64,000 nucleotides of DNA from the IMG/VR virus record IMGVR_UViG_3300042894_005670; one strand, 5' to 3'. The translations under genes and the position numbers were made by a program. This DNA comes from a virus. The notes beneath the pieces are model-generated. The model did no database searches, had not been told where the DNA came from, and saw nothing but the letters and a program-made list of their open reading frames with translations. Within the stretch, counting starts at the first letter, position 1. Each line of letters opens with the position of its first letter. Shown here one piece after another: positions 43,328-57,758 of this stretch.

Positions 43328-43852
43328 TTAGAGGAAAATCTGTTTAAGTTTTGGCATGACTGAATTTAAATCAGTGTACAATAATCCTATGCCACCTGCT
43401 TGATTAAATGCATCAATTTTTTTAGGAGTATCGTCGATTAATATGGCAGGTTGGTGTCCATAATTAGCCCACTTCCATTTGTTAGGTTCAAATATAGCTT
43501 TTTGAGCAACTTCCCACCCTAAATTAGTGGCTAACCAATCTTTTTTACCAACTTCACTTGCTTTACGACTATCTTTGGGATCGACCCCACTACTACGTAA
43601 TGGTGCACTAAGGATACGCCAATCAATATTGTGATCATCTAACCACTTAATTAATTGCATTCCATCAGCTAATGGTGGCATGTTAGCGAAAAAATCTTTT
43701 ACCCCACGTGGTCCTAACCTACGCAGACTATCTACCCTACTTTCTTTGTCAGTACCATCATATTTAAGGATAGCTTGGTCAAAATCAGCTAGGACACCAT
43801 CCATATCAACAAAGACAAAAGGTTTTGGTTTACTTACTTCGAAGATTTTCAT
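43328..43852 (-). CDS. HAD-family 5'(3')-deoxyribonucleotidase-like protein
   Basis: VDMDGVLADF, ILSAP and ILIDD; start MKIFE. Confidence 0.85.
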   Translation of the reverse strand: MKIFEVSKPKPFVFVDMDGVLADFDQAILKYDGTDKESRVDSLRRLGPRGVKDFFANMPPLADGMQLIKWLDDHNIDWRILSAPLRSSGVDPKDSRKASEVGKKDWLATNLGWEVAQKAIFEPNKWKWANYGHQPAILIDDTPKKIDAFNQAGGIGLLYTDLNSVMPKLKQIFL

Positions 43853-44277
43853 ACTCTGCAATTTCCTATAACTTTTGTTATTGTTGTAAATTCACGTGCT
43901 ACACGATCATAAAACAATTCAGGAGGTCTTTCACTGTAAGTACGATAACCTAAAGCAAGTTGCCCCATGTCAACATAATAGGATAAACTAGGCCAACGTT
44001 TTCTGTTGAGCTTTAATCCATCAATAAGTATACATTCTTCTGCCAATCTTGTCAAATTAGTTTTTTTGGTTTCACCATCAGTGTTCATGGCTTCCATTAA
44101 TTTTATGGCAATAGGTTCGTTATTAATATTTGGGTTTTCCATATGTCTTGCAAACATATGTACGGTAAACGCCTCTATATCAGGATCAAGATTAACACAT
44201 GCAGCAGCTTCGGCGGCAAGAATTACCTCGTAGCTATGCTTGACATAGGTCATCCAATGTTGCATATTAATGTTCAA
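43849..44277 (-). CDS. Hypothetical protein
   Basis: 142-aa ORF; YYVDMGQ.A motif. Confidence 0.6.
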   Translation of the reverse strand: MNINMQHWMTYVKHSYEVILAAEAAACVNLDPDIEAFTVHMFARHMENPNINNEPIAIKLMEAMNTDGETKKTNLTRLAEECILIDGLKLNRKRWPSLSYYVDMGQLALGYRTYSERPPELFYDRVAREFTTITKVIGNCRV

Positions 44278-45511
44278 GCAATAAGGTTATAATAACGTCA
44301 TTACGGTTAGCACTATCGTCCCCATCCCCAGGCGCCACCACCACATTCCAATATGGCTCACCATTAGACTTTGTACCATCCTTAAATCCCATCATTTGAT
44401 CATAAGTAATAATCGTTTGTGGTTTTATACCATATTTTTGTGCTGCACGTTGTTTGAATGTTTCCCAAGCCTCTGCATTTTTCCAACGTAATTTATTATT
44501 TGCATCACGCCCCATTAAATCAGTAAACAATGCACGATCAACAATTTCACTACGCTTTACTTCTTGACCTGTCTGTTTTTTAAATAATTCTACTTTTTTG
44601 AATTCTCCTGATTTTGCTCCCATAGAAAAATTAATTCTAAAATTCTTTGGACGTTCGCTTGTTGCAACATCGCCTATTTTTGTATAGGCATAAAATTGCA
44701 CGTCAGGAAACTTTCTTGCAACATCATAGGCTAAGTTAAGATATTCAGGGCTAAAGAAATCACCCGCATCGTGCCAACGAATGATGACTTGTGTACCCTG
44801 TTTTTGAAACTTATTTCTTGCAGATTCAATCTCATTTTCTAGCATAGCTTTCCATCCATCGGGATCATTAAGTAAAAAATTTAATGATCTTGATCCTGCT
44901 TCAGATGGTGGAGCATATTGTACATAACCACCTTTCATTGCATAACATACTTGTACGCATTTTCCTGCCCCAGGGCAAGTATTTACAACCACAAATTTCA
45001 TCTTTTCTTCATCTACTGCTAAACCAACTAAAGCAGGTAAACCAATATTAAAAAATATACTGCTACTTCCATCACTATGCTGCATTTTTTCGTTTTGTTT
45101 TAACAGCTTCTTAGGACGTTGCATCACTGATGCCATCAATTTTGGCAAATCATACAATTGATTACTAGGATCTACAATAGGCACTGTGCCACTGTGAATA
45201 TATGGACGTATTAGTTTATCTTGCTTAAATCGTTTGTAAACTTCGTATTCTTCACCTGACATTTTACCAAGTTGTTTTTTACTTGGTCTACGATATTTTT
45301 TCTGTAATTCAGGGCTAAGTTTTCTACGTAAATAGTCAGTTAATTCGTCTTCAGGATAATCTCGACGTGGTGCCCCTAAGAATTTTTCAGCTTCATCTAA
45401 TTCTTCTTGATCTTGTACAAATTGTTGTAGTGACATCACCTCAACTCCCTGAGCGGCGCCTGGAAAATCGGACTTTAATGTATCTTCAAGTAATAATTCA
45501 TTAATTTTCAT
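44267..45511 (-). CDS. Gp88-like protein (Cys-cluster, radical-SAM-like)
   Basis: TCPGAGKCVQVCYA, RWHDAGDF and YAYTK. Confidence 0.75.
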   Translation of the reverse strand: MKINELLLEDTLKSDFPGAAQGVEVMSLQQFVQDQEELDEAEKFLGAPRRDYPEDELTDYLRRKLSPELQKKYRRPSKKQLGKMSGEEYEVYKRFKQDKLIRPYIHSGTVPIVDPSNQLYDLPKLMASVMQRPKKLLKQNEKMQHSDGSSSIFFNIGLPALVGLAVDEEKMKFVVVNTCPGAGKCVQVCYAMKGGYVQYAPPSEAGSRSLNFLLNDPDGWKAMLENEIESARNKFQKQGTQVIIRWHDAGDFFSPEYLNLAYDVARKFPDVQFYAYTKIGDVATSERPKNFRINFSMGAKSGEFKKVELFKKQTGQEVKRSEIVDRALFTDLMGRDANNKLRWKNAEAWETFKQRAAQKYGIKPQTIITYDQMMGFKDGTKSNGEPYWNVVVAPGDGDDSANRNDVIITLLLEH

Positions 45512-45543
45512 AGTAACAATACCTTTATAGTATTTATTTCATT

Positions 45544-46245
45544 TTATCCAAAACCAAACGTGCCATAGTGTTTAGAACGTGCATAGGCAGCTATTAAAAC
45601 TTTACCGCCAATCTTACGCCATTCATTACAAAAATGATAATCTTCAGATAGTAAATTATAATCAATACTTGTTTGAAAAAATCCGTATGTTAATCGACCT
45701 GTATATTCACCCCAATTACCTATATAAGTTGGAGTATGCGGTTTTAACTTTTCAAACACATTACGTTTGATAAGCATATATCCCGTACCTGCATGAATAG
45801 CTTCTTTCAAACGATCAGGTTCATTGTCTAATTGGGGATCCTCGCCAGGGGCTGCATTAAATATATACCAAGTACTATAAAATGGTAATTTTTCAGGTGG
45901 CTCCCCGTTTCGTACAGCATGATGTACCCATTCCCAATTAATAATTTTTGATGGATAACATCCACAAATCAAATCTACATCCTCATTAATCATACGAATT
46001 ACATCAGGTGGATTGATGATTACGTCAGCGTCTAAAAATAATAAATGAGTACAATCACTTAATAAAAAATCTGATACTAAATTATCTCTAGCACGTGTGA
46101 TTAACGATTGATCATACGTAAAATGATATTCTAATTTCCACTTTTTCTTTCTAAATTCTTCAATTAATTTAATTAATGCATCAGCAAATAACCCATGACA
46201 TTGTCCACCATACATGGGTGTTGCAAGAAAAACTTTTGGCTTCAT
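45544..46245 (-). CDS. Glycosyltransferase-like (GT-A) protein
   Basis: ATPMYGG, SLITRARD, FLDAD, GTGYMLI and LSEDYHFC. Confidence 0.8.
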   Translation of the reverse strand: MKPKVFLATPMYGGQCHGLFADALIKLIEEFRKKKWKLEYHFTYDQSLITRARDNLVSDFLLSDCTHLLFLDADVIINPPDVIRMINEDVDLICGCYPSKIINWEWVHHAVRNGEPPEKLPFYSTWYIFNAAPGEDPQLDNEPDRLKEAIHAGTGYMLIKRNVFEKLKPHTPTYIGNWGEYTGRLTYGFFQTSIDYNLLSEDYHFCNEWRKIGGKVLIAAYARSKHYGTFGFG

Positions 46246-46289
46246 CTTTACCTCATTAAAAGTAAAGATATTTAATGTGGTATTGCTGT

Positions 46290-46496
46290 TTAATTATTTT
46301 TAATTAAATCATCCAAATATGCTCTTGCCGCACGATAATGTTCAACTTCAAAATTAAATGTTTTCCATTCGCCACTAGCACATTGTGCAGTAAATGAATA
46401 ACTTCTTAATGGTTGTGCCATAGGTGGTGGTGCCATAGGTGCTTCGTTTGATCCTCCAACTAAACTCATGTTATTATTCTCCTTATGATGAGCCAA
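46290..46496 (-). CDS. Hypothetical protein
   Basis: ORF track; likely start MSLVGG after AAGGAG. Confidence 0.45.
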   Translation of the reverse strand: MAHHKENNNMSLVGGSNEAPMAPPPMAQPLRSYSFTAQCASGEWKTFNFEVEHYRAARAYLDDLIKNN

Positions 46497-48672
46497 AAAA
46501 CTTATTCATCAAAGCTTTTTGTTTTTTAGGTTTTGCCCCAAGTACAGGACTAATATTAGCCACCTTATCAGTGCCACTTAAGTATTTTGGGTTACGCTTG
46601 TCCTCTTTAGTATAACGTGGGTCTTTAGGGTCATACTCAGTACCAAATGCACTCTTAACTTGTGACGAATTGAATATGATATAAGACATATCTATATAGT
46701 CAGCTTGTTTTTGCAAATACTGATGCGCTTCTTGTTCAGCTTCTTCAGGTGTATCGCCTTCACCAATAGGTAAAGTAGGCATAACATTATCAGGTAAATA
46801 TGCTACGTATTTTGATCCTTCTTTTTTAATCGTAAAATTAATGCGCTCATCAGGTCGCAATGTTCGCTTACCTTCATTAGTATTACGATATTGTATACCA
46901 TCATATCCCGCATCAAACAATGAACGTGCTAATTCAGCATAGATTGTTGCTTTACAGTCATCCCAATCCATATCACGATCCCTACGAATTGCTTCAAGTT
47001 CGTTATATTCTTTTTGGTTAATAATCTTTTTCTTAAATAAAAAATTCATAACTTGACGTAAATGCTCTTCATCAGGACCAAATATGTCAGGCATAGTAAA
47101 AGGGTTTGTAATCTTTAAAAATACAGGAATTACACGTGCTCCACTATATTTGGCAAACTCATTAGCTGCTTCACGATTGCCAAAATGTATACCAAAATCA
47201 CGATATAAATTTTTAAACGTTGAAAAATCATTAGATGTACCATGATAAACAATCATAGGAGCACCATTACTATCAACTACTTTACTATTGCCAAACCATG
47301 CTCTTAAATTTTCCTCACGACCTTCTACTAATTCTTTTAAAAAACTCATGGACTCTTTGTTGATATTAGGATTAGTTGGGTCAAATGTACCATCATTGTA
47401 AACGGATTTGATTTGCTCAGGGCGTAATGCTATGTACCACGTTTTGGTTCTGCCTTTTATAACGAAGCCATCATTACCGTTTTCTGTAGCCTTTTTAAGA
47501 AGATTACGCACTTGGACGTATCCCTTACTAGAATTAGACATTGACACCCATTTGTCCACGGATATAGAAAGCGGATTTTTAATAGATAAGAAAACGGGGA
47601 TGATGTTGGCACCTTCTTGTTGAGCATACCCGCCAGCATCCGAGGCTGACGTTGAGAAAAAGATGCCTAGATAATCAGTTGCATTTGGCACACTGCTGCC
47701 TTTTGGCGCAGACTTGTCAAACGCTGCAAAGTTTCTGAGCGTACCGTGATACACCACTAACGGATCGCCTCTTTCATCAACCACCTTACTATTACCAAAC
47801 CACTTATTAAAATTATTTTTTCTATCATTACTATCTTCTTTAGTAATGTCAGGTTCATATTTACCAAATGTACCTACATTATATATAGACTTGATTTGAT
47901 ACTGTTCAAATGGACGATAAGTTAAAATAATCGGTGTGCCCTCAGCACCAAGTTCTAACTCTTTTCCATCACGTGGTTCATATTTTTGGGAACCTGCTTC
48001 AAAAACATCTTTTAAAATGACACCATCATATCCCATACCTTGTAGGTAACTTACAATATCTTCACTATCTGCAATAGTATATGTATCTATAACCGTATTG
48101 TCTAGTGCATCCTCAATAGAACTAATATCGTCTGCTTCACCCCATGTGTCAATTTGATCTGAAAGGTCACGAAATCCTTTTATTCTAAAACCATCATCGT
48201 CATAAGCATTGATTGAAAATCTTGCGCCTGTTTTGTATATAATTTCATCTAAATCATATATCATATAGGACACATCTCTCCAACCTAATTTTTTACGTCC
48301 ACCATCAGGTACATTTAGATCACTAGGCACCGTATTAATAAAATCTATTAATGATATTGTTTCGTTATAACGGGTAAGATCTAATGGTTTAACAATTCGT
48401 AAATACGCTGCGATTACAGTAGAACCACTACCATATTGTCTTGTGTCTAAATGTCTAGAGTATACACTAGCTGCTGCAGGGTCATTAGTAAAAGATGGTA
48501 CTGCACGACCTTGAGTTAATTTAAATTCTGTGGCAGCAGGTCGCTTACGTGTACCACGATATACAACAAGTGGGTTGCCATTACTATCAACCACTTTACT
48601 ATTACCAAACCAACTACGAAATGCTTTTGTCTCTCTAGCTTTTTGGTATTCTAATAATTGTCCAATTTTCAT
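46483..48672 (-). CDS. Protein with three tandem ADP-ribosyltransferase-like (ART-PolyVal-type) domains
   Basis: Three WFGNSKVVD..G.P..VY[RH]GT starts, each with [YF]L.I..P, G.DG and Q[IV]KS. Confidence 0.75.
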   Translation of the reverse strand: MKIGQLLEYQKARETKAFRSWFGNSKVVDSNGNPLVVYRGTRKRPAATEFKLTQGRAVPSFTNDPAAASVYSRHLDTRQYGSGSTVIAAYLRIVKPLDLTRYNETISLIDFINTVPSDLNVPDGGRKKLGWRDVSYMIYDLDEIIYKTGARFSINAYDDDGFRIKGFRDLSDQIDTWGEADDISSIEDALDNTVIDTYTIADSEDIVSYLQGMGYDGVILKDVFEAGSQKYEPRDGKELELGAEGTPIILTYRPFEQYQIKSIYNVGTFGKYEPDITKEDSNDRKNNFNKWFGNSKVVDERGDPLVVYHGTLRNFAAFDKSAPKGSSVPNATDYLGIFFSTSASDAGGYAQQEGANIIPVFLSIKNPLSISVDKWVSMSNSSKGYVQVRNLLKKATENGNDGFVIKGRTKTWYIALRPEQIKSVYNDGTFDPTNPNINKESMSFLKELVEGREENLRAWFGNSKVVDSNGAPMIVYHGTSNDFSTFKNLYRDFGIHFGNREAANEFAKYSGARVIPVFLKITNPFTMPDIFGPDEEHLRQVMNFLFKKKIINQKEYNELEAIRRDRDMDWDDCKATIYAELARSLFDAGYDGIQYRNTNEGKRTLRPDERINFTIKKEGSKYVAYLPDNVMPTLPIGEGDTPEEAEQEAHQYLQKQADYIDMSYIIFNSSQVKSAFGTEYDPKDPRYTKEDKRNPKYLSGTDKVANISPVLGAKPKKQKALMNKFFGSS

Positions 48673-49109
48673 CCACGGTCTTTTTTCAATATGCTACGAA
48701 GCATCCATGAATGTTTTGCGTGACTATCAATACGTCCTGCTATAAAATCAGCAATACCTTGCTCATCTTCTGCTTCACATTGATGGAATGTTTCTTTTAA
48801 TAATACAATAATCTTTTGATTATCTTCGTACAATTCTGCCATCATTAACTCAGCACGTGGTATTTGTTGTTGCTCATCAATAATACTTAACTCTTGATAC
48901 CTCGTCATGGATCCTGGTGCATATGAGTCTAACTGTCGAATTATTTCAGCTAGTTGATCAATACTGCCATATACTTCATTATACAAATCACCTAAAAATG
49001 CATGATATTGTGGAAAGTTTGGGCCTTCAATGTTCCAATGAAACCCTGCTGCCTTTATATAAAAAGCAAATGATGTTCCTAACACTTGCTTTAACTTATC
49101 TTTTAACAT
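48669..49109 (-). CDS. dps: Dps/ferritin-like DNA protection protein
   Basis: HWNIEG.NF.QYH, DQLAE and H.K..WML. Confidence 0.93.
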   Translation of the reverse strand: MLKDKLKQVLGTSFAFYIKAAGFHWNIEGPNFPQYHAFLGDLYNEVYGSIDQLAEIIRQLDSYAPGSMTRYQELSIIDEQQQIPRAELMMAELYEDNQKIIVLLKETFHQCEAEDEQGIADFIAGRIDSHAKHSWMLRSILKKDRG

Positions 49110-51555
49110 TCTTTTTACCTTCTAGCATATTCTTTTGTGCTTCGTGACCTTCCATATACTCTGCTACATCTTTTATTAGTTCATCAGCACGTGTAATGTG
49201 GTCGGAGACCCATCCTGGCAAGCCTTGTCCTTCACTTCTACCTTTAATTATCTTAGCAAGTGACATTGAACTTTTTACGGTAGATAATAAACTGTTTACT
49301 GCCATTGATACTTCATGGTCAGGTTCCATATGCTTAGCTTTAACTACATCACCACGCATACGCATTTTACCAGGCATCACTATGAGGTCTTGTTCACTTA
49401 AATCAGCTTCCTTCAATGTGTTAGGTATAGCACCCGTATTGTTTAAGAAAAACTGATCTGTTACACCTGCTTTAATTTTTAAATCTCGCACTTGCTCTCT
49501 ATACTCGTTAATTTCTTCCGCAATAGCACGACCTAATATTTGACCAATTTGTTCAGGTGTTGCAGGTACATCAGGTCCTGTACCACCAAATTTTGTATTT
49601 ACTAACCTAGGGAAGTAATTTCTAACAACACTAGCTAAACGATTAACTGTTTCACTCGTTAAAGCTTTGTATTGTTGTATATAATTATCATATGAAATAT
49701 TGTTAGCTAATGCTTTACCACCTGCGGCTATCGCTGCACCTGCCGCTGCAGCTTTACCTAAACTTCCTAAAAATCCTCTACGTGCAGGATCAGCTTCATT
49801 GATACTTTCTTCATCAGAAAATTTTGCATCACGTAATGCATCTTCAAAAATTTCATCTAATCCATAAATTGCACTTTCTAATTCATGCTTGGCTTCATAA
49901 ACACGGCTATTATGATAATTAAAATCATCCATGTCTAATGCATAAGCTTTTACTAAATTTTCAATTTCTACCATAATTTCATTTACGGTATTATCGTATG
50001 AAATTCCTTTAGTAATTTTTCTAGCTTGCATTAAGGCACGTTCCAAATCATCTGCACGACCTTCGTTAATGCTTTCGTTCTTAGATTTATTACCCCAATT
50101 CTTTGCACCTGCTTTACGACATTTAACTAATGCACCACTAGCATATGCACTAGGCCAAATTTTGTAACGACTTTTTACCTTATGGTAGCATGCATCTTTT
50201 TTACCTTCAGTAAATAATGCTTCACTGACCATTTCACCATTACATTGTGGGCAAATACCCTCTTTGACATAATACTCAAGACTTTCATTCTTAGTCTTGT
50301 TGCTTACCATATCAGCCGCACCTTGACGTTGTGGGTTTGGATCTTCACGGCGTTTTTTACGTACTGCTGCTGCAATAGCTTTTTTACCACCACTAGCACG
50401 TAATGATGCTGCTTTTTCTTTACTTAGGCATTTTGGTTTACCTTCACCTGCTTTACGTTCTCCACACTTACCAATACGCTCACCTTTAGTATTGTAGCGA
50501 TCCCATCCACCGCCACCTGCACCACCTTCACCGCCTTTACCAAACCATGCACGTAAATCTTCGCTTAATTGTTCAGCAATTTCACTTTCACTGAATTCTT
50601 TGCCAACTAGTTTATCACCTGTAACACCTTGAATTAGTGCCCATGCACGTTGAAATTCTTTTTCTTTAATTAATTGATTTAGGATTTGTTTTTGACGTGG
50701 ATCTGCCATTTTAAAGAATTTAACCATTTCCATTGCACCGATATTACCTTCATAACCTAGTTCCATCAATGCTTCTTCATTAGTATGAGATTGGTATTCA
50801 TCATAATCCATATACATATCGGTATCACGATCATAATACTTACCTTCTTTAGGATCGTAATAAACAATCTTACCTGATTTTAAACGAAATGGTCCTTCTA
50901 ACCCTTGGTCTGACATATCTGTATAACGTTCTTTATCAATTGGAGTTGATATTTTCCAACCTTCCGCCACACCTTGCGTCTCTGGACCATCCATCCAACT
51001 CTGCGTTAGTTTAATCATATCTAACGGAATGCGTTTTTTATCGTGAATTTCCATTGCCTTCAATCTTGCGGATTCTTGTGATGGGAACGGAATGGCATCA
51101 AACTTCTTATCTCTAAGAACTTTACCTTTAACTCTTACATACCAGTTTTCAGAGCCTTCCGCCACACCTTCTTTCCTAATACCAAGTGTACTCGCAGGAT
51201 TACCTCCACCAAACATACTAGCAAATGCATCACTTGCTTGTTGTTTAGTATCTGCTTTTTGTTGTTTTTTTACTGATTTTTTACTCGTAACCTTTTTAAG
51301 CATTGTTTTAAACTTATCACCATCCGTTGTTGGATTAGTAGCTTCTGCCACCGTCTTTTTCTTTTTGCTACCTGCCCAATTACCCCACTCTGAAGCACTG
51401 CGCTCTACACTATTCATGTATTTTTTACCACTATCTGCAGTCTCATCCGTTTTTTCACGTTTTACTGTTTCTTTGAATAATGGTGTGGCAACAGTAGCAA
51501 CTGAACCTGCTGTCATTTCATTAATTTTATCTAAGGTTTTACGAATATCTGACAT
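49096..51555 (-). CDS. Modular 819-aa protein; putative processed internal-head polyprotein
   Basis: About 10 unrelated short modules separated by VAE/INE/LSE/LKE-type linkers; ATAAATA box upstream. Confidence 0.6.
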   Translation of the reverse strand: MSDIRKTLDKINEMTAGSVATVATPLFKETVKREKTDETADSGKKYMNSVERSASEWGNWAGSKKKKTVAEATNPTTDGDKFKTMLKKVTSKKSVKKQQKADTKQQASDAFASMFGGGNPASTLGIRKEGVAEGSENWYVRVKGKVLRDKKFDAIPFPSQESARLKAMEIHDKKRIPLDMIKLTQSWMDGPETQGVAEGWKISTPIDKERYTDMSDQGLEGPFRLKSGKIVYYDPKEGKYYDRDTDMYMDYDEYQSHTNEEALMELGYEGNIGAMEMVKFFKMADPRQKQILNQLIKEKEFQRAWALIQGVTGDKLVGKEFSESEIAEQLSEDLRAWFGKGGEGGAGGGGWDRYNTKGERIGKCGERKAGEGKPKCLSKEKAASLRASGGKKAIAAAVRKKRREDPNPQRQGAADMVSNKTKNESLEYYVKEGICPQCNGEMVSEALFTEGKKDACYHKVKSRYKIWPSAYASGALVKCRKAGAKNWGNKSKNESINEGRADDLERALMQARKITKGISYDNTVNEIMVEIENLVKAYALDMDDFNYHNSRVYEAKHELESAIYGLDEIFEDALRDAKFSDEESINEADPARRGFLGSLGKAAAAGAAIAAGGKALANNISYDNYIQQYKALTSETVNRLASVVRNYFPRLVNTKFGGTGPDVPATPEQIGQILGRAIAEEINEYREQVRDLKIKAGVTDQFFLNNTGAIPNTLKEADLSEQDLIVMPGKMRMRGDVVKAKHMEPDHEVSMAVNSLLSTVKSSMSLAKIIKGRSEGQGLPGWVSDHITRADELIKDVAEYMEGHEAQKNMLEGKKNVKR
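50960..51170. repeat. 16-bp direct repeat CCTTCCGCCACACCTT (50960-50975 and 51155-51170) bounding a 65-codon module
   Basis: Exact repeat; both copies encode GVAEG. Confidence 0.9.
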
Positions 51556-51599
51556 GATGGAATTCCATAATATCTAGTATTTATTCGCTATGAATTAAT

Positions 51600-53009
51600 T
51601 TAGAACTTACCTGATGGCTTTGCTATGGGTGGTATACCACTACGTTTAATCTTACCTAAACCTAATTTTATAGCATTTTGTCTAATACTATCAGGTTTAA
51701 TATCAACCGTTAATGCTGTTTTAAATCTTGGATCGTTTTTTTCTGCTTCACTAGGGATATATCCTGAAGCCTCATTAACATTAAATGTAGGATCAACTTT
51801 CTGACGTTTCATTCCTTTGGGTTGGTTAGGGTCAAGAGGATCAATATCCGTAGTAGATAAACCTGTTGCTTCTAAATCATCAATATATTTGTGTTCAGTA
51901 TCTTCATCACCAAATGTTAATATGGTGCTAGGTGGTCCTTTACCAAAATCATGCTTACCTAAACCCTTAAGATTACTAATATGTTGTCCTAACTTATACC
52001 AATCATACACATCACTTACATCTACTCTAACCGTACCTTTTGGCATAGTGGGTTTAAACTCAGGACCAGGTGGGTTTCCGTTAGGGTCATAATCATCACG
52101 TAATTTACTATAATGTTTTCTATTTTTAGCCAAGTTTTTGTATGCCATTTCAGTAGCTAAACTACGCACACTAGTATTTGCCATTTCAAACTTTATACCA
52201 CGCTTTAATTCACTTATGATATCATTTCTACTACAACCATGCATCTTTGCTAATTCACTAATAGTATATACAGGTTGTTCAACATTTTTACCAACCTTTT
52301 GCTCCATACTCATCTTTTCACTATGTATTTCATTATAAGTATCACGCAGACGATGCAATAAACCACTAGTACGGAACGCTTTAAATGCTATATTTTCAGG
52401 AGAAAATTCACCTTGTGCATCTAAACCTGCTTTTCGATATTTTCTAATTGTATCTAGTAAGTCTTCAATCTTGTCTATATCTCTAGCTTGTAGTGCTAAT
52501 TCAGCTACTTGTGCTAATTTTTCAAACTTTAATTGACTTGCTGGTTCGTTGATATCAGCAACACGTTTGGTAGGAAATTTTATCCAACGATCTTTTAGTA
52601 CACTGTACTCACCACGACTAACAACAGGATCAGCCGTATCTTGTACGTATAATTCTACTTCATAACCGCCTATAGTAATATCATGTTGCAAATTCCATAT
52701 GATTTTTTTACTATGAAATAACTCACTATAAATTTCATCATTTTTTAATTTCTTAATATCAACTAAAATATGTAAGTCAATATCACTATGTGGCGTATAG
52801 GTATATGAAGCATTGCTACCACTTAGTGTAATATCTTTAACATCTATATTACTTACACCAAGATGCTCCATAAAATCATCTGCAATTTCTAATAACCGAT
52901 CACGCACAGCAGGAATCATGTGTTCATCCCTAAAAATAGCAGGGTTTAACTGATCATGAAACTGTATAGCGTTTGATAATTTAAATTGTTCTAATTCTTT
53001 TAAATTCAT
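51600..53009 (-). CDS. Pol-beta-superfamily nucleotidyltransferase with appended C-terminal modules
   Basis: LSGSNA...SDIDLH and VELYVQD; start MNLKELE. Confidence 0.75.
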   Translation of the reverse strand: MNLKELEQFKLSNAIQFHDQLNPAIFRDEHMIPAVRDRLLEIADDFMEHLGVSNIDVKDITLSGSNASYTYTPHSDIDLHILVDIKKLKNDEIYSELFHSKKIIWNLQHDITIGGYEVELYVQDTADPVVSRGEYSVLKDRWIKFPTKRVADINEPASQLKFEKLAQVAELALQARDIDKIEDLLDTIRKYRKAGLDAQGEFSPENIAFKAFRTSGLLHRLRDTYNEIHSEKMSMEQKVGKNVEQPVYTISELAKMHGCSRNDIISELKRGIKFEMANTSVRSLATEMAYKNLAKNRKHYSKLRDDYDPNGNPPGPEFKPTMPKGTVRVDVSDVYDWYKLGQHISNLKGLGKHDFGKGPPSTILTFGDEDTEHKYIDDLEATGLSTTDIDPLDPNQPKGMKRQKVDPTFNVNEASGYIPSEAEKNDPRFKTALTVDIKPDSIRQNAIKLGLGKIKRSGIPPIAKPSGKF

Positions 53010-53022
53010 AGTTGTATTTAGC

Positions 53023-53056
53023 AAAAAAACCGTGATAGAATTTCTCCTATCACGGT
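53023..53056 (-). terminator. Rho-independent terminator
   Basis: ACCGTGATAG/CTATCACGGT stem followed by T7. Confidence 0.85.
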
Positions 53057-54826: not shown

Positions 54827-55510
54827 TTATGCTACTTCAGGAGGTTTTTGTATTGAGTATTCCTTTTTAATACATTCATGAAAAGTCATATAAAACAATG
54901 ATTGCATATGCTCATCGTCATAATCAAAAAATAAATCTCCACCAATCCATCGACCATTTTTATTATTTGCATCCCAATGCATATAAAAATTAAAATTAGG
55001 AGATGGGAAAAAATGTTTTTTATACTTTGTAAAAAAATCACGTAATTCAATTAATTCGGTATGAGAATACACCCTTGACTTTAAATAGATACGAAAATTA
55101 TGCTTTGGGTTTTTATGATATATAATTTCTTTAGGTCTTGAAAAATTTACAAGTACTTCTTCAACAGTGTTAGGTTGACCTAAAATTTTAGCTAAATCTT
55201 CTATAATATCATAGCGTGTTGAATATACAGTAATACTATTAACATGTTTTAATGTTTTAATATAATCATCATTTGCTGATTTCCATATAAGAAATTTCTT
55301 AATTTCAATTAAGTTTTTAACATAAGCTTCACGAAGATTAGAACGAAGTAATTCGCTTTGTATTATTTCTAAATCATAATTTCTATGGATACCAATTTGC
55401 TTAAGGTCAAAACAAACTTTATATTTGTACTTGTCATACCATAACCAATGTTGATTTACATTAGGTTGCAGTGTTGTATAGCTAAATCCTGATAATACCA
55501 TCTGTTCCAA
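54827..55510 (-). CDS. Hypothetical protein
   Basis: 227-aa ORF. Confidence 0.55.
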   Translation of the reverse strand: MEQMVLSGFSYTTLQPNVNQHWLWYDKYKYKVCFDLKQIGIHRNYDLEIIQSELLRSNLREAYVKNLIEIKKFLIWKSANDDYIKTLKHVNSITVYSTRYDIIEDLAKILGQPNTVEEVLVNFSRPKEIIYHKNPKHNFRIYLKSRVYSHTELIELRDFFTKYKKHFFPSPNFNFYMHWDANNKNGRWIGGDLFFDYDDEHMQSLFYMTFHECIKKEYSIQKPPEVA

Positions 55511-57758
55511 TTACCTCATCCTTATCAATTGTTTTTTCTGCTGTAAAATTAATTTCATCTCCGTTTAGTATAACGTGAACATTAGAATCTTTTAATTTTT
55601 CAAATAAAATCTTTTTACTTAACGGTACTCTGATAAGTTCATCAATCTTACGAGCAAGTGGACGTGCACCCATTTTATCGTCATAACCAACTTTAGCTAA
55701 GTGCTCAACTGCTTGCTCACTAATCGTTAAATTAATCTTGTGCTGTTTAAGTAATTGTGCTTTTAACTCATTAACAAATTTAATAACAATTTTCTTAATG
55801 GCTAACATGTCTAACTTACTAAACTTACATACTAAATCAATACGATTACGCAGTTCAGGTTTGAAAAACTCTTTAAATGCTCGGTCATCTTCACCTACTT
55901 TTTGTGTTGACCCAAAACCAATGTTTGATTTTTCACTATCTCTAGCACCTAAATTACTAGTCATAATAATGATTGTGTTTTTAGCATCTACCGTTTTACC
56001 ATTAGTGCTAGATATTCTACCCTCATCCAATAATTGTAAGAATAAGTTATACACATCAGGGTGTGCTTTTTCAACCTCATCAAACAATAATATAGCGTAT
56101 GGGTTTTTACTTAGATCATTGATAATTTTTCCACCACCAAGATTACCTTCACCATAGCCGACATAGCCTGGGGGCGCACCAATCAAAGCAGCTACGCTAT
56201 GTTTTTCTTGATATTCACTCATATCATAACGTAGCAATGGCATGCTTAAATGTTCGCTTAATAATCGAGCAGTTTCAGTCTTACCGCTGCCTGTTGGTCC
56301 TAAGAATAAGAAACTTGCCATAGGTTTCTTTTCATTAGAAATACCCGCAAAGCTAACATATATTCTATCTAAAATTTTCTCTAATGTAGCATCTTGCCCA
56401 TAGAGTTTTTGTTTAATATTTTGATCTAAGTTAGTCATTTTTTCTGATGAATCATTAGTAAGTTTGTCCGCAGAAACGTTACACATTCTAGTGACTTGTT
56501 CTTTAATACTATTTTCATCAATAATTGCACCAACATTGTTTGCAGCACGTTGTTTAGCACATGCTGCATCGAGTAAATCAATGGACTTATCAGGATTTTT
56601 TCTATCATGAATATATCTTGCGCTCATAGTGACTGCCTCAGTAATAGCATTAGGCATAATTTTTACACCATGAAATGACTCAAGACGTTCACTTAATCCT
56701 GTCAAAATGTCAATAGTAGTTGCATTTGTTGGCTCATCAATAGAAACACGGTAAAATCGACGCATTAAAGCACGATCTTTTTCAAATGATTCGTAGTATT
56801 CTTCCCACGTGGTACTAGCAATTACCTTCAAGTTACCTTTTGTAATTGCAGGTTTAATCATATTGGCAAAGTCTACACTGCCACCACTACCATTTCCACT
56901 ACCACGCATAGTGTGTGCTTCATCTATGAATAAGATAGCTTTAGGTTTGGTTGCTAATGCTTCTAAAACGTGTTTAACTTTTTCCTCAAAATCACCACGA
57001 TACTTACTACCTGCAAGTAGTGATCCAATTTCTAATGAATATACTTCATGGTCAAACAAAAATGGTGGTACATTTTTGTCAAGAATTTTTTGTGCTAAAC
57101 CTTCAGCAAGGACGGTTTTTCCAACGCCTGGGTCGCCAACAAGTAATACATTAGATTTGAAACGTTTAGCTAATACATTGACAATATCATTAACTTCACT
57201 TTCACGCCCAATCAATGGCTCAATTTTATTACGTTTGGCTAACTCAGTTAAACTAATCGTAAACTCATCTAATACTTCATTAGCTTGTTGCTCAGTCATT
57301 TTTCCACTCTTACTACTTTTGTGTGCTTTATTCCAATAAGCAATAAATTCATTCCGTGTTACGCCCCATTTCAATAAGAAATAATGTGCATGGCTGTTAG
57401 TTTCCTGTAAAATTGAAATATATATGTCTATTAGTTCAATTTGTCTGCGTCCTGTGAATAATACTTGTGTTACTGCACGATTAAAAACACGCTCAAGTGA
57501 ATGAGTTTTCTTTGGTGCTACAGGAGTACCATCTTCATTTGGAGACACTTTTAAATTATTGACTGAATCTAAATATTCATCAACTTCTTGAATAAGTTGT
57601 ACTGTATCGACACCAAATTCATCTAGATGTTCCCTAAATGATTCAAAGGTAATCAAACTTAACAAAGCATGTTCTAATGTTACATAACCATGATATCTGC
57701 TTTTTGCAATCTCAATGGCATGCTCAATTAATTTTTCAATTTCAGGGTTGTTTATCAT
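55482..57758 (-). CDS. clpA: Clp/Hsp100 ATPase (ClpA-like)
   Basis: Clp-N domain, two Walker A motifs (GDPGVGKT, GPTGSGKT), KYRGDFE, GAPPGYVG and IGF loop. Confidence 0.92.
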   Translation of the reverse strand: MINNPEIEKLIEHAIEIAKSRYHGYVTLEHALLSLITFESFREHLDEFGVDTVQLIQEVDEYLDSVNNLKVSPNEDGTPVAPKKTHSLERVFNRAVTQVLFTGRRQIELIDIYISILQETNSHAHYFLLKWGVTRNEFIAYWNKAHKSSKSGKMTEQQANEVLDEFTISLTELAKRNKIEPLIGRESEVNDIVNVLAKRFKSNVLLVGDPGVGKTVLAEGLAQKILDKNVPPFLFDHEVYSLEIGSLLAGSKYRGDFEEKVKHVLEALATKPKAILFIDEAHTMRGSGNGSGGSVDFANMIKPAITKGNLKVIASTTWEEYYESFEKDRALMRRFYRVSIDEPTNATTIDILTGLSERLESFHGVKIMPNAITEAVTMSARYIHDRKNPDKSIDLLDAACAKQRAANNVGAIIDENSIKEQVTRMCNVSADKLTNDSSEKMTNLDQNIKQKLYGQDATLEKILDRIYVSFAGISNEKKPMASFLFLGPTGSGKTETARLLSEHLSMPLLRYDMSEYQEKHSVAALIGAPPGYVGYGEGNLGGGKIINDLSKNPYAILLFDEVEKAHPDVYNLFLQLLDEGRISSTNGKTVDAKNTIIIMTSNLGARDSEKSNIGFGSTQKVGEDDRAFKEFFKPELRNRIDLVCKFSKLDMLAIKKIVIKFVNELKAQLLKQHKINLTISEQAVEHLAKVGYDDKMGARPLARKIDELIRVPLSKKILFEKLKDSNVHVILNGDEINFTAEKTIDKDEVIGTDGIIRI

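Follow-up and report, generated by a model that had tools for sequence, protein, structure and literature searches.

How could a signal for protein export act when it lies 587 residues inside the protein that carries it? This question is raised by a stretch of viral DNA of 64,000 nucleotides (nt), IMG/VR record IMGVR_UViG_3300042894_005670, the whole of which is called "the window" here; its source is an uncultured marine jumbo phage related to T4. One gene of the window encodes a modular protein of 819 amino acids (aa), P0001. A sequence-only reading of this DNA had claimed a twin-arginine translocation (Tat) signal within it, at 49705-49794, directly behind a putative Ser-Ile-Asn-Glu cleavage site and ahead of a module of about 100 aa. 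The translation bears out that arrangement: the site and the RRGFL-containing segment occupy residues 584-617, and the cargo that follows (618-716) is 99 aa long. On the comparisons described below, we interpret residues 588-617 as a portable export signal of the Tat type, in a copy that is somewhat shortened and that would, we infer, become N-terminal only after a cut at Glu587. Judged from the sequences, the export signal itself appears better supported than the route that we propose for it.

The segment reads Ala-Asp-Pro-Ala, then the twin arginines (592-593) within RRGFL, Lys601, a stretch of Ala, Gly and Ile, and Lys-Ala-Leu-Ala, followed by Asn-Asn. When it is set beside the twin-arginine consensus, (S/T)-R-R-x-F-L-K, the core is matched, with Ala in place of Ser/Thr and Gly in place of Lys; the full R-R-G-F-L-K is present in several relatives. 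A hydrophobic (h-) region is followed by a c-region of the Ala-x-Ala type with a basic residue. The length of the former is at the low end (12 residues versus 16-21 in most relatives), and the equivalents of the latter in relatives are Ala-Gln-Ala, Ser-Gln-Ala, Ala-Met-Ala, Ala-Leu-Gly and Val-Phe-Gly. The N-terminal location that is usual for such signals is lacking, as the segment starts at residue 588 of 819. Across the six frames of the 64-kb window, this is the sole instance of RR-x-F-[LIVM] with a small/hydrophobic run behind it. Further, the G+C content of the window is only 34%, and thus a run of GCN/GGN codons is not expected from composition.

Among NCBIfam models, the window fragment is matched best by TIGR02811, a Tat-target family, through its signal part (E 4e-6 to 1e-4); TIGR01409 comes next among the signal models. 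The homologous segments of relatives score above the TIGR01409 cut-off in seven of ten cases and above the PF10518 cut-off in two of ten. Among whole proteins, two exceed the latter cut-off at internal positions (111-130 and 490-510), and one stand-alone gene does so as well. In alignment A2, the h-region of the window lineage is shorter than that of most relatives through a deletion of six residues, and the Lys after Phe-Leu has been lost. The window copy is therefore a weak form of a segment that meets the curated definition elsewhere.

The RRGFL core is conserved over distant relatives and before differing cargos, as the sequence-only reading required of a genuine signal. A comparison of the window with L001 over 28 codons gave five synonymous changes and one non-synonymous change, and L004 differs from L017 over 34 codons by 15 and one, respectively. 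These counts indicate that purifying selection is acting on the amino-acid sequence of the signal peptide. All 12 loci compared encode the arginine pair as CGT AGA. A near-identical signal is also found in a stand-alone phage gene that has its own ATG and a GGAG 8 nt upstream; therefore, signals of this type are found in the usual N-terminal setting, too. Many unrelated viral contigs (L026, L031, L033, L035, L036, L042 and L030) carry short stand-alone genes (80-210 aa) whose products open with Met-Asn-Arg-Arg-Gly-Phe-Leu, and these starts are N-terminal Tat-type signals of the ordinary kind. No phage-encoded TatA was found in the records of five relatives.

The surroundings of the segment in other phages are informative. 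When 1.84 billion representatives were searched by HMMER with residues 588-819 as the query, most matches were to the C-terminal module, and among the matches were three unrelated proteins that carry the same segment type before other cargos. Two DNA-pattern scans of IMG/VR were made with patterns that began at Ala or Met, the upstream Glu and [VIL] residues not being included, and a search with a profile of the cargo added about 30 further proteins. The same segment type was thereby located inside modular proteins of uncultured T4-related jumbo phages, with 29 distinct upstream contexts in total. It is buried 77 to 889 residues deep in open reading frames (ORFs) of 290-1371 aa. In 25 of the 26 contexts from modular proteins, a Glu lies two to four residues before the twin arginines and a Val, Ile or Leu lies two residues before that Glu; a survey for RRxFL directly after [ILV]xE, which the sequence-only reading had called for, thus came out in its favor. 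The residue two before the Glu is Val in 17 contexts, Ile in five, Leu in three and Thr in one, and the residue after the Glu is Ala in 22. The background of [VIL]-x-Glu in P0001 is 21 sites in 819 residues, and the position rule is therefore far beyond chance.

Signal-like segments of the Sec type also occur right after [VIL]-x-Glu, in P0028, P0038, P0143, P0169, P0183, P0184, P0190 and the ORF at 6148-8853 of L014. They consist of Gly-Trp-Lys-x-Lys and a stretch of 15-19 Ala, Gly and Leu residues, without twin arginines. Buried export-type signals may be a general theme of such modular phage proteins, as these sequences suggest. A separate family of phage proteins of 560-740 aa (L025 5163-7370, minus strand; L043; L045 4112-5788, minus strand) has an internal Met-Asn-Arg-Arg-Gly-Phe-Leu and a hydrophobic stretch. 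Its members have Lys or Gly instead of Glu before the segment, and they contain Gly-rich repeats.

What lies behind the signal in relatives speaks to its purpose. At least eight unrelated cargos follow the same signal type. A GH19 wall hydrolase does so in two architectures (E 1.4e-16 and 4e-10), as does a TonB C-terminal domain (E 1.1e-17). Both kinds of cargo act outside the cytoplasm, and they are thus what an export signal predicts. In one segment, the h-region ends in a lipobox-type Cys. Most of the other cargos, including that of the window, have no recognizable function. The window cargo had no match in Pfam, NCBIfam, PHROG, the ESM Atlas or the folds of the Protein Data Bank (PDB), and a second, beta-rich cargo type of relatives (about 80 aa; predicted local distance difference test score, pLDDT, of about 70) had no significant PDB match. 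AlphaFold2, run on alignment A2, placed helices at 35-65 and 80-108 of the window module with a pLDDT of about 80, and it modeled the signal segment as a low-confidence helix (pLDDT about 40).

In the GP88-family protein of one relative (L041 7712-9433, plus strand), the GP88 domain comes after a leader and a Tat-type signal whose end, Val-Ala-Gly-Cys, is lipobox-like; the GP88-like gene of the window (44267-45511, minus strand) has the leader without the Tat-type signal that is seen in L041. Two GH19 proteins (L015 1945-2820 and L029 3372-4946, both plus strand) have a nine-residue leader, Met-Arg-Ala-Thr/Ser-Glu-Phe-Ile-x-Glu, which closely resembles the targeting sequence of the T4 internal proteins. 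One of the two also has an ART-like (ADP-ribosyltransferase) N-terminal domain ahead of its buried signal.

The signal and its cargo behave as a unit. The block that they form is present in five of 12 aligned relatives, and exactly that block is missing from the other seven, in which both flanking sides are joined directly. Nucleotides ~1750-2140 of the gene have no counterpart in the gene of the relative L003, which is otherwise 93-96% identical and lacks the whole block. The cassette is flanked by a 9-base direct repeat, GAAGCTGAT (Glu-Ala-Asp; window 49393-49407 and 49786-49797, minus strand). Together with the uniform CGT AGA codons, this repeat points to cassette exchange by recombination at the joints. 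In an alignment of the whole protein with 12 relatives, the differences are entire cassettes bounded by [VIL]-x-Glu. Copies of the cargo in relatives are preceded by a signal-like segment in 21 of 22 cases. We found no stand-alone copies of the window cargo, the three short matches being fragments from contigs of ~1 kb; the odd hydrophobic start of P0124 is probably an artefact of an assembly edge. Among the cultured phages in a collection of 50,697 records, none has the cassette, and the matches are to other modules or to the GH19 domain only.

The [VIL]-x-Glu joints appear to match a Glu-specific prohead protease of the T4 type. A gene for an S77 (gp21-type) prohead protease is present in four of five records of cassette-carrying relatives, including both genomes of 345-349 kb that are ~100% complete, and it is the only Glu-specific protease found in relatives. 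In T4, the gp21-type S77 protease works inside the prohead, and the 10-residue capsid targeting sequence (CTS) is processed through its residues 8 and 10; fusion proteins that bear a CTS are packaged, processed by gp21 after Glu, and delivered into the infected cell (PMC9026906). The prohead proteases of related giant phages cut after x-Glu (PMC5694885).

We propose that the window encodes a protease-unmasked Tat-type signal on a packaged module, which would be injected and then exported by the host. We put this proposal at a little short of an even chance. The precursor would enter the prohead via its short N-terminal leader. A prohead protease of the S77 (T4 gp21) type would then cut after Ile-Asn-Glu587, yielding a fragment that starts Ala-Asp-Pro-Ala-Arg-Arg and thus has the signal at a free N-terminus. 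When the next cell is infected, this fragment would pass out of the head together with the DNA, and the Tat machinery of the host would move the helical-hairpin cargo of ~100 aa to the periplasmic side of the inner membrane, where it would either be released at Ala-Leu-Ala or be kept anchored. All of this would occur ahead of any phage gene expression. More tentatively still, these phages might use a two-step address code: a capsid-targeting leader would load the chain of modules into the head, cuts by the head protease would place Tat-type signals (in relatives, Sec-type ones as well) at new N-termini, and the injected proteins would be re-exported by the machinery of the new host to its periplasm before phage expression. 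We regard this wider scheme, extended to T4-related jumbo phages, as possible and somewhat doubtful.

Several facts weigh against the proposal. The claim that the segment is a Tat signal stands as to its best NCBIfam match and falls short in the scores of the window's own copy, which reaches 10.7 bits with TIGR01409 (curated cut-off, 16.7) and has no match to PF10518 in Pfam (cut-off, 22.7 bits). Its uncharged stretch is only 12 residues long, and Gly replaces the usual Lys after Phe-Leu. One lineage, P0070, has the same cargo without the signal, and in one context, Lys takes the place of the Glu that precedes the segment. The gene of the modular protein is set among genes for replication and nucleotide metabolism, not among head genes, and the closest relative, represented by a 137-kb fragment rated 39% complete, yielded no prohead protease. 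Finally, we infer the cut at Ile-Asn-Glu, the packaging, the injection and the export by Tat. The sequence-only reading is thus partly supported: the likeness to a signal, the conserved RRGFL, the position rule, the lack of an internal start and the periplasm-acting cargos of relatives speak for it, and those four steps stay conditional.

Other means of exposing the signal must be considered. Internal initiation of translation could yield a small pre-protein in its own right, with the Tat signal at its N-terminus as usual and no need for proteolysis, and most relatives do keep a Met, encoded by ATG, three residues before the twin arginines. The codon at this position is CCT in the window, however, and TTA or ATA in some relatives. 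No in-frame ATG, GTG or TTG is present among the ten codons that precede the cut site or the four that separate it from the twin arginines, and the ATG of relatives has no well-placed Shine-Dalgarno sequence, the nearest GGAG being ~14 nt away. An internal start, which the sequence-only reading had named as the alternative that would dispense with proteolysis, is thus ruled out for the window, and we give this explanation next to no credence in general. Proteolysis is therefore left as the way to free the N-terminus. It could also happen elsewhere than in the head: a Glu-specific protease of phage or host might cut the precursor in the cytoplasm of the producing cell, with Tat export in that same cell serving, for example, superinfection exclusion or timed wall hydrolysis. 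The position of the gene amid genes of the replication type, not head genes, would suit such a scheme, the GH19 cargos of relatives would suit a role in lysis, and all of the evidence for an export signal fits it equally well. It is made unlikely by the identity of the sole Glu-specific protease found in relatives, the S77 prohead protease, which in T4 is active inside the prohead (PMC9026906), and by N-terminal leaders that look like capsid-targeting leaders.

The two remaining explanations do away with Tat export. The segment could be a membrane-active or anchoring helix that inserts into the inner membrane during ejection, or serves as a tether in the capsid, with its likeness to a Tat signal being convergent. 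The window stretch is indeed short (12 residues), Ala/Gly-rich like glycine-zipper helices, and below the Tat cut-offs, and in related proteins, sites of this type are also followed by Sec-like Ala/Gly helices that lack twin arginines. Yet 12 residues between two lysines are too few to reach across a membrane, a GH19 or TonB C-terminal cargo requires real translocation, and the invariant RRGFL, the Ala-x-Ala ends and Tat profile scores above threshold in seven of ten relatives are specific to Tat; we consider the helix explanation improbable. Alternatively, the segment may be a relic of stand-alone Tat-signal genes that were fused in frame, now kept as a linker or as a handle for DNA recombination with no role in export, and the shortened window copy may be decaying. 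This would account for the Met three residues before the twin arginines in most relatives, for the stand-alone gene with a near-identical signal, and for the loss of that Met, the shortening and the low scores of the window copy; the identical Arg codons in all loci and the flanking 9-base repeat fit with cassette exchange. A relic would not be expected to show strong purifying selection on the amino-acid sequence alongside many synonymous changes, or a conserved Ala-Asp before the Met, or strict placement after [VIL]-x-Glu. Further, no stand-alone copy of the window cargo was found, the short matches being contig-end fragments. The relic explanation is, in our view, rather improbable.

Our proposal of an injected and re-exported module has precedents for its parts. 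The segment has the RR-x-F-L core of bacterial Tat signals (TIGR01409, PF10518) and their weakly hydrophobic, Ala/Gly-rich h-region, and its c-region, like theirs, holds a basic residue and closes with Ala-x-Ala; it differs from them in being 587 residues inside a translated protein and, in the window copy, in its short h-region and the absence of Lys after Phe-Leu. Secreted and signal-anchor-release endolysins are phage wall hydrolases that reach the periplasm by host export, and the GH19 domains behind the signal in relatives recall them. Those endolysins carry N-terminal Sec-type signals on stand-alone proteins, whereas the present signal is of the Tat type, internal, and located behind another module.

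There are also parallels among proteins that are processed in phage heads. As with IPI, IPII, IPIII and Alt of T4 (PMC9026906), there is a leader and there are further joints that end in hydrophobic-x-Glu, and an S77 protease is present in relatives; a neighboring ADP-ribosyltransferase gene resembles Alt. Each of these T4 proteins consists of a single module and works in the cytoplasm, in contrast to the long chain of exchangeable modules here, and the literature that we searched describes no export signal behind their cleavage site. The ejection proteins of phiKZ-like giant phages (phiKZ, 201phi2-1, SPN3US) are likewise processed by the prohead protease; many head proteins of these phages are cleaved behind x-Glu, each precursor at several sites, and the products enter the cell (PMC5694885, PMC9026906). 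Their motif is Ala/Ser/Gly-x-Glu instead of Val/Ile/Leu-x-Glu, and no signal peptides are reported behind their sites. The polyvalent proteins (Iyer et al. 2017, PMC5512222) also have many modules and are thought to be delivered with DNA, their units being cut and sent to different places in the cell, and the gene adjacent to that of P0001 has an ART-PolyVal domain. Polyvalent proteins use a Zn-metallopeptidase domain of their own, whereas Pfam found none in P0001; the main text of the paper on them contains none of the terms "twin-arginine", "signal peptide" or "periplasm" (PMC5512222). In the literature searched, we found no phage protein described as having a Tat signal buried behind a protease site. 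The parts (Tat signals and the processing of head cargo) are known, but their combination is not.

If the proposal is correct, the hijacked Tat pathway of the host could bring a ready-made protein to the periplasm within moments of infection. This pathway accepts finished proteins. Known phage-injected proteins act in the cytoplasm; a further compartment would be added to their reach, with remodeling of the envelope, a block to TonB-dependent entry of rivals, or wall hydrolysis as possible outcomes. The phage would have a route for immediate takeover or exclusion at the level of the envelope. From the sequence side, the buried signal would also testify independently that these modular proteins are truly cut at their [VIL]-x-Glu joints.

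Table. Features of the modular protein gene and their positions in the window
Feature	Window position	Strand	Basis
Modular protein P0001, 819 aa	49096..51555	-	ORF list and translation
N-terminal 13-residue leader, ends Ile-Asn-Glu	51517..51555	-	Almost unchanged across 12 relatives
Ser-Ile-Asn-Glu, residues 584-587, putative protease site before signal	49795..49806	-	Translation; [VIL]-x-Glu rule in related contexts
Tat-type signal-like segment, residues 588-617	49705..49794	-	Translation, profile matches, selection
RRGFL core, residues 592-596	49768..49782	-	Same in every relative collected
h-region, 12 uncharged Ala/Gly-rich residues 602-613, between Lys601 and Lys614	49717..49752	-	Translation
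c-region Lys-Ala-Leu-Ala, residues 614-617, possible signal-peptidase site	49705..49716	-	Translation
Cargo, residues 618-716 (99 aa), ends Leu-Lys-Glu, predicted helical hairpin	49408..49704	-	AlphaFold2
Short joint, residues 717-721, ends Leu-Ser-Glu	49393..49407	-	Its Glu-Ala-Asp codons repeat the cassette-start codons
C-terminal module, residues 722-819	49099..49392	-	Widespread domain of such modular phage proteins

P0001 has no Pfam family at E <= 0.01, and its PHROG matches are only to small modules of unknown function. The leader at its N-terminus is possibly a propeptide of the capsid-targeting type, by analogy, and short leaders that end in hydrophobic-x-Glu also start the proteins of relatives and neighboring genes. 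The C-terminal module is matched by 585 representative proteins at E <= 0.001, at differing positions in those proteins. Homologs of other modules in cyanophages adjoin structural genes, and some are annotated "structural protein".

The genes around that of the modular protein encode a Dps/ferritin-like protein, a 729-aa ART-PolyVal protein (adjacent), a GP88-family protein, a nucleotidyltransferase and a ClpB-like ATPase; genes for replication and nucleotide metabolism are farther along the window. Within 43328-53024 (minus strand), the HAD-like, GP88-like, triple ART and nucleotidyltransferase genes open with short Met-Lys/Asn leaders that end in hydrophobic-x-Glu. These leader-bearing neighbors and the modular protein may be one set of head-targeted proteins. 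The DNA polymerase is closest to those of Sinorhizobium phage Phosso and Agrobacterium phage Atu_ph07 (46-50% identical), and the next-nearest polymerases are from a group of Yersinia, Erwinia and Pectobacterium jumbo phages.

The best matches of the ClpB-like ATPase (window 55482-57758, minus strand) are copies with 55-64% identity on L056-L060, which are contigs of metagenome-assembled genomes. The bins are labeled Chitinophagaceae, Haliscomenobacter, Polynucleobacter and Lishizhenia (Bacteroidota and Proteobacteria). Because these labels span unrelated phyla, the contigs are probably DNA of related phages that was mis-binned into bacterial genomes, and a host call from the matches of this gene was dropped for the same disagreement. 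Exact matches to the T4-type late promoter box number 8 in the window, against an expectation of 13.6, and so show no enrichment. The sequence AATAAATA lies ~25 nt upstream of the start codon.

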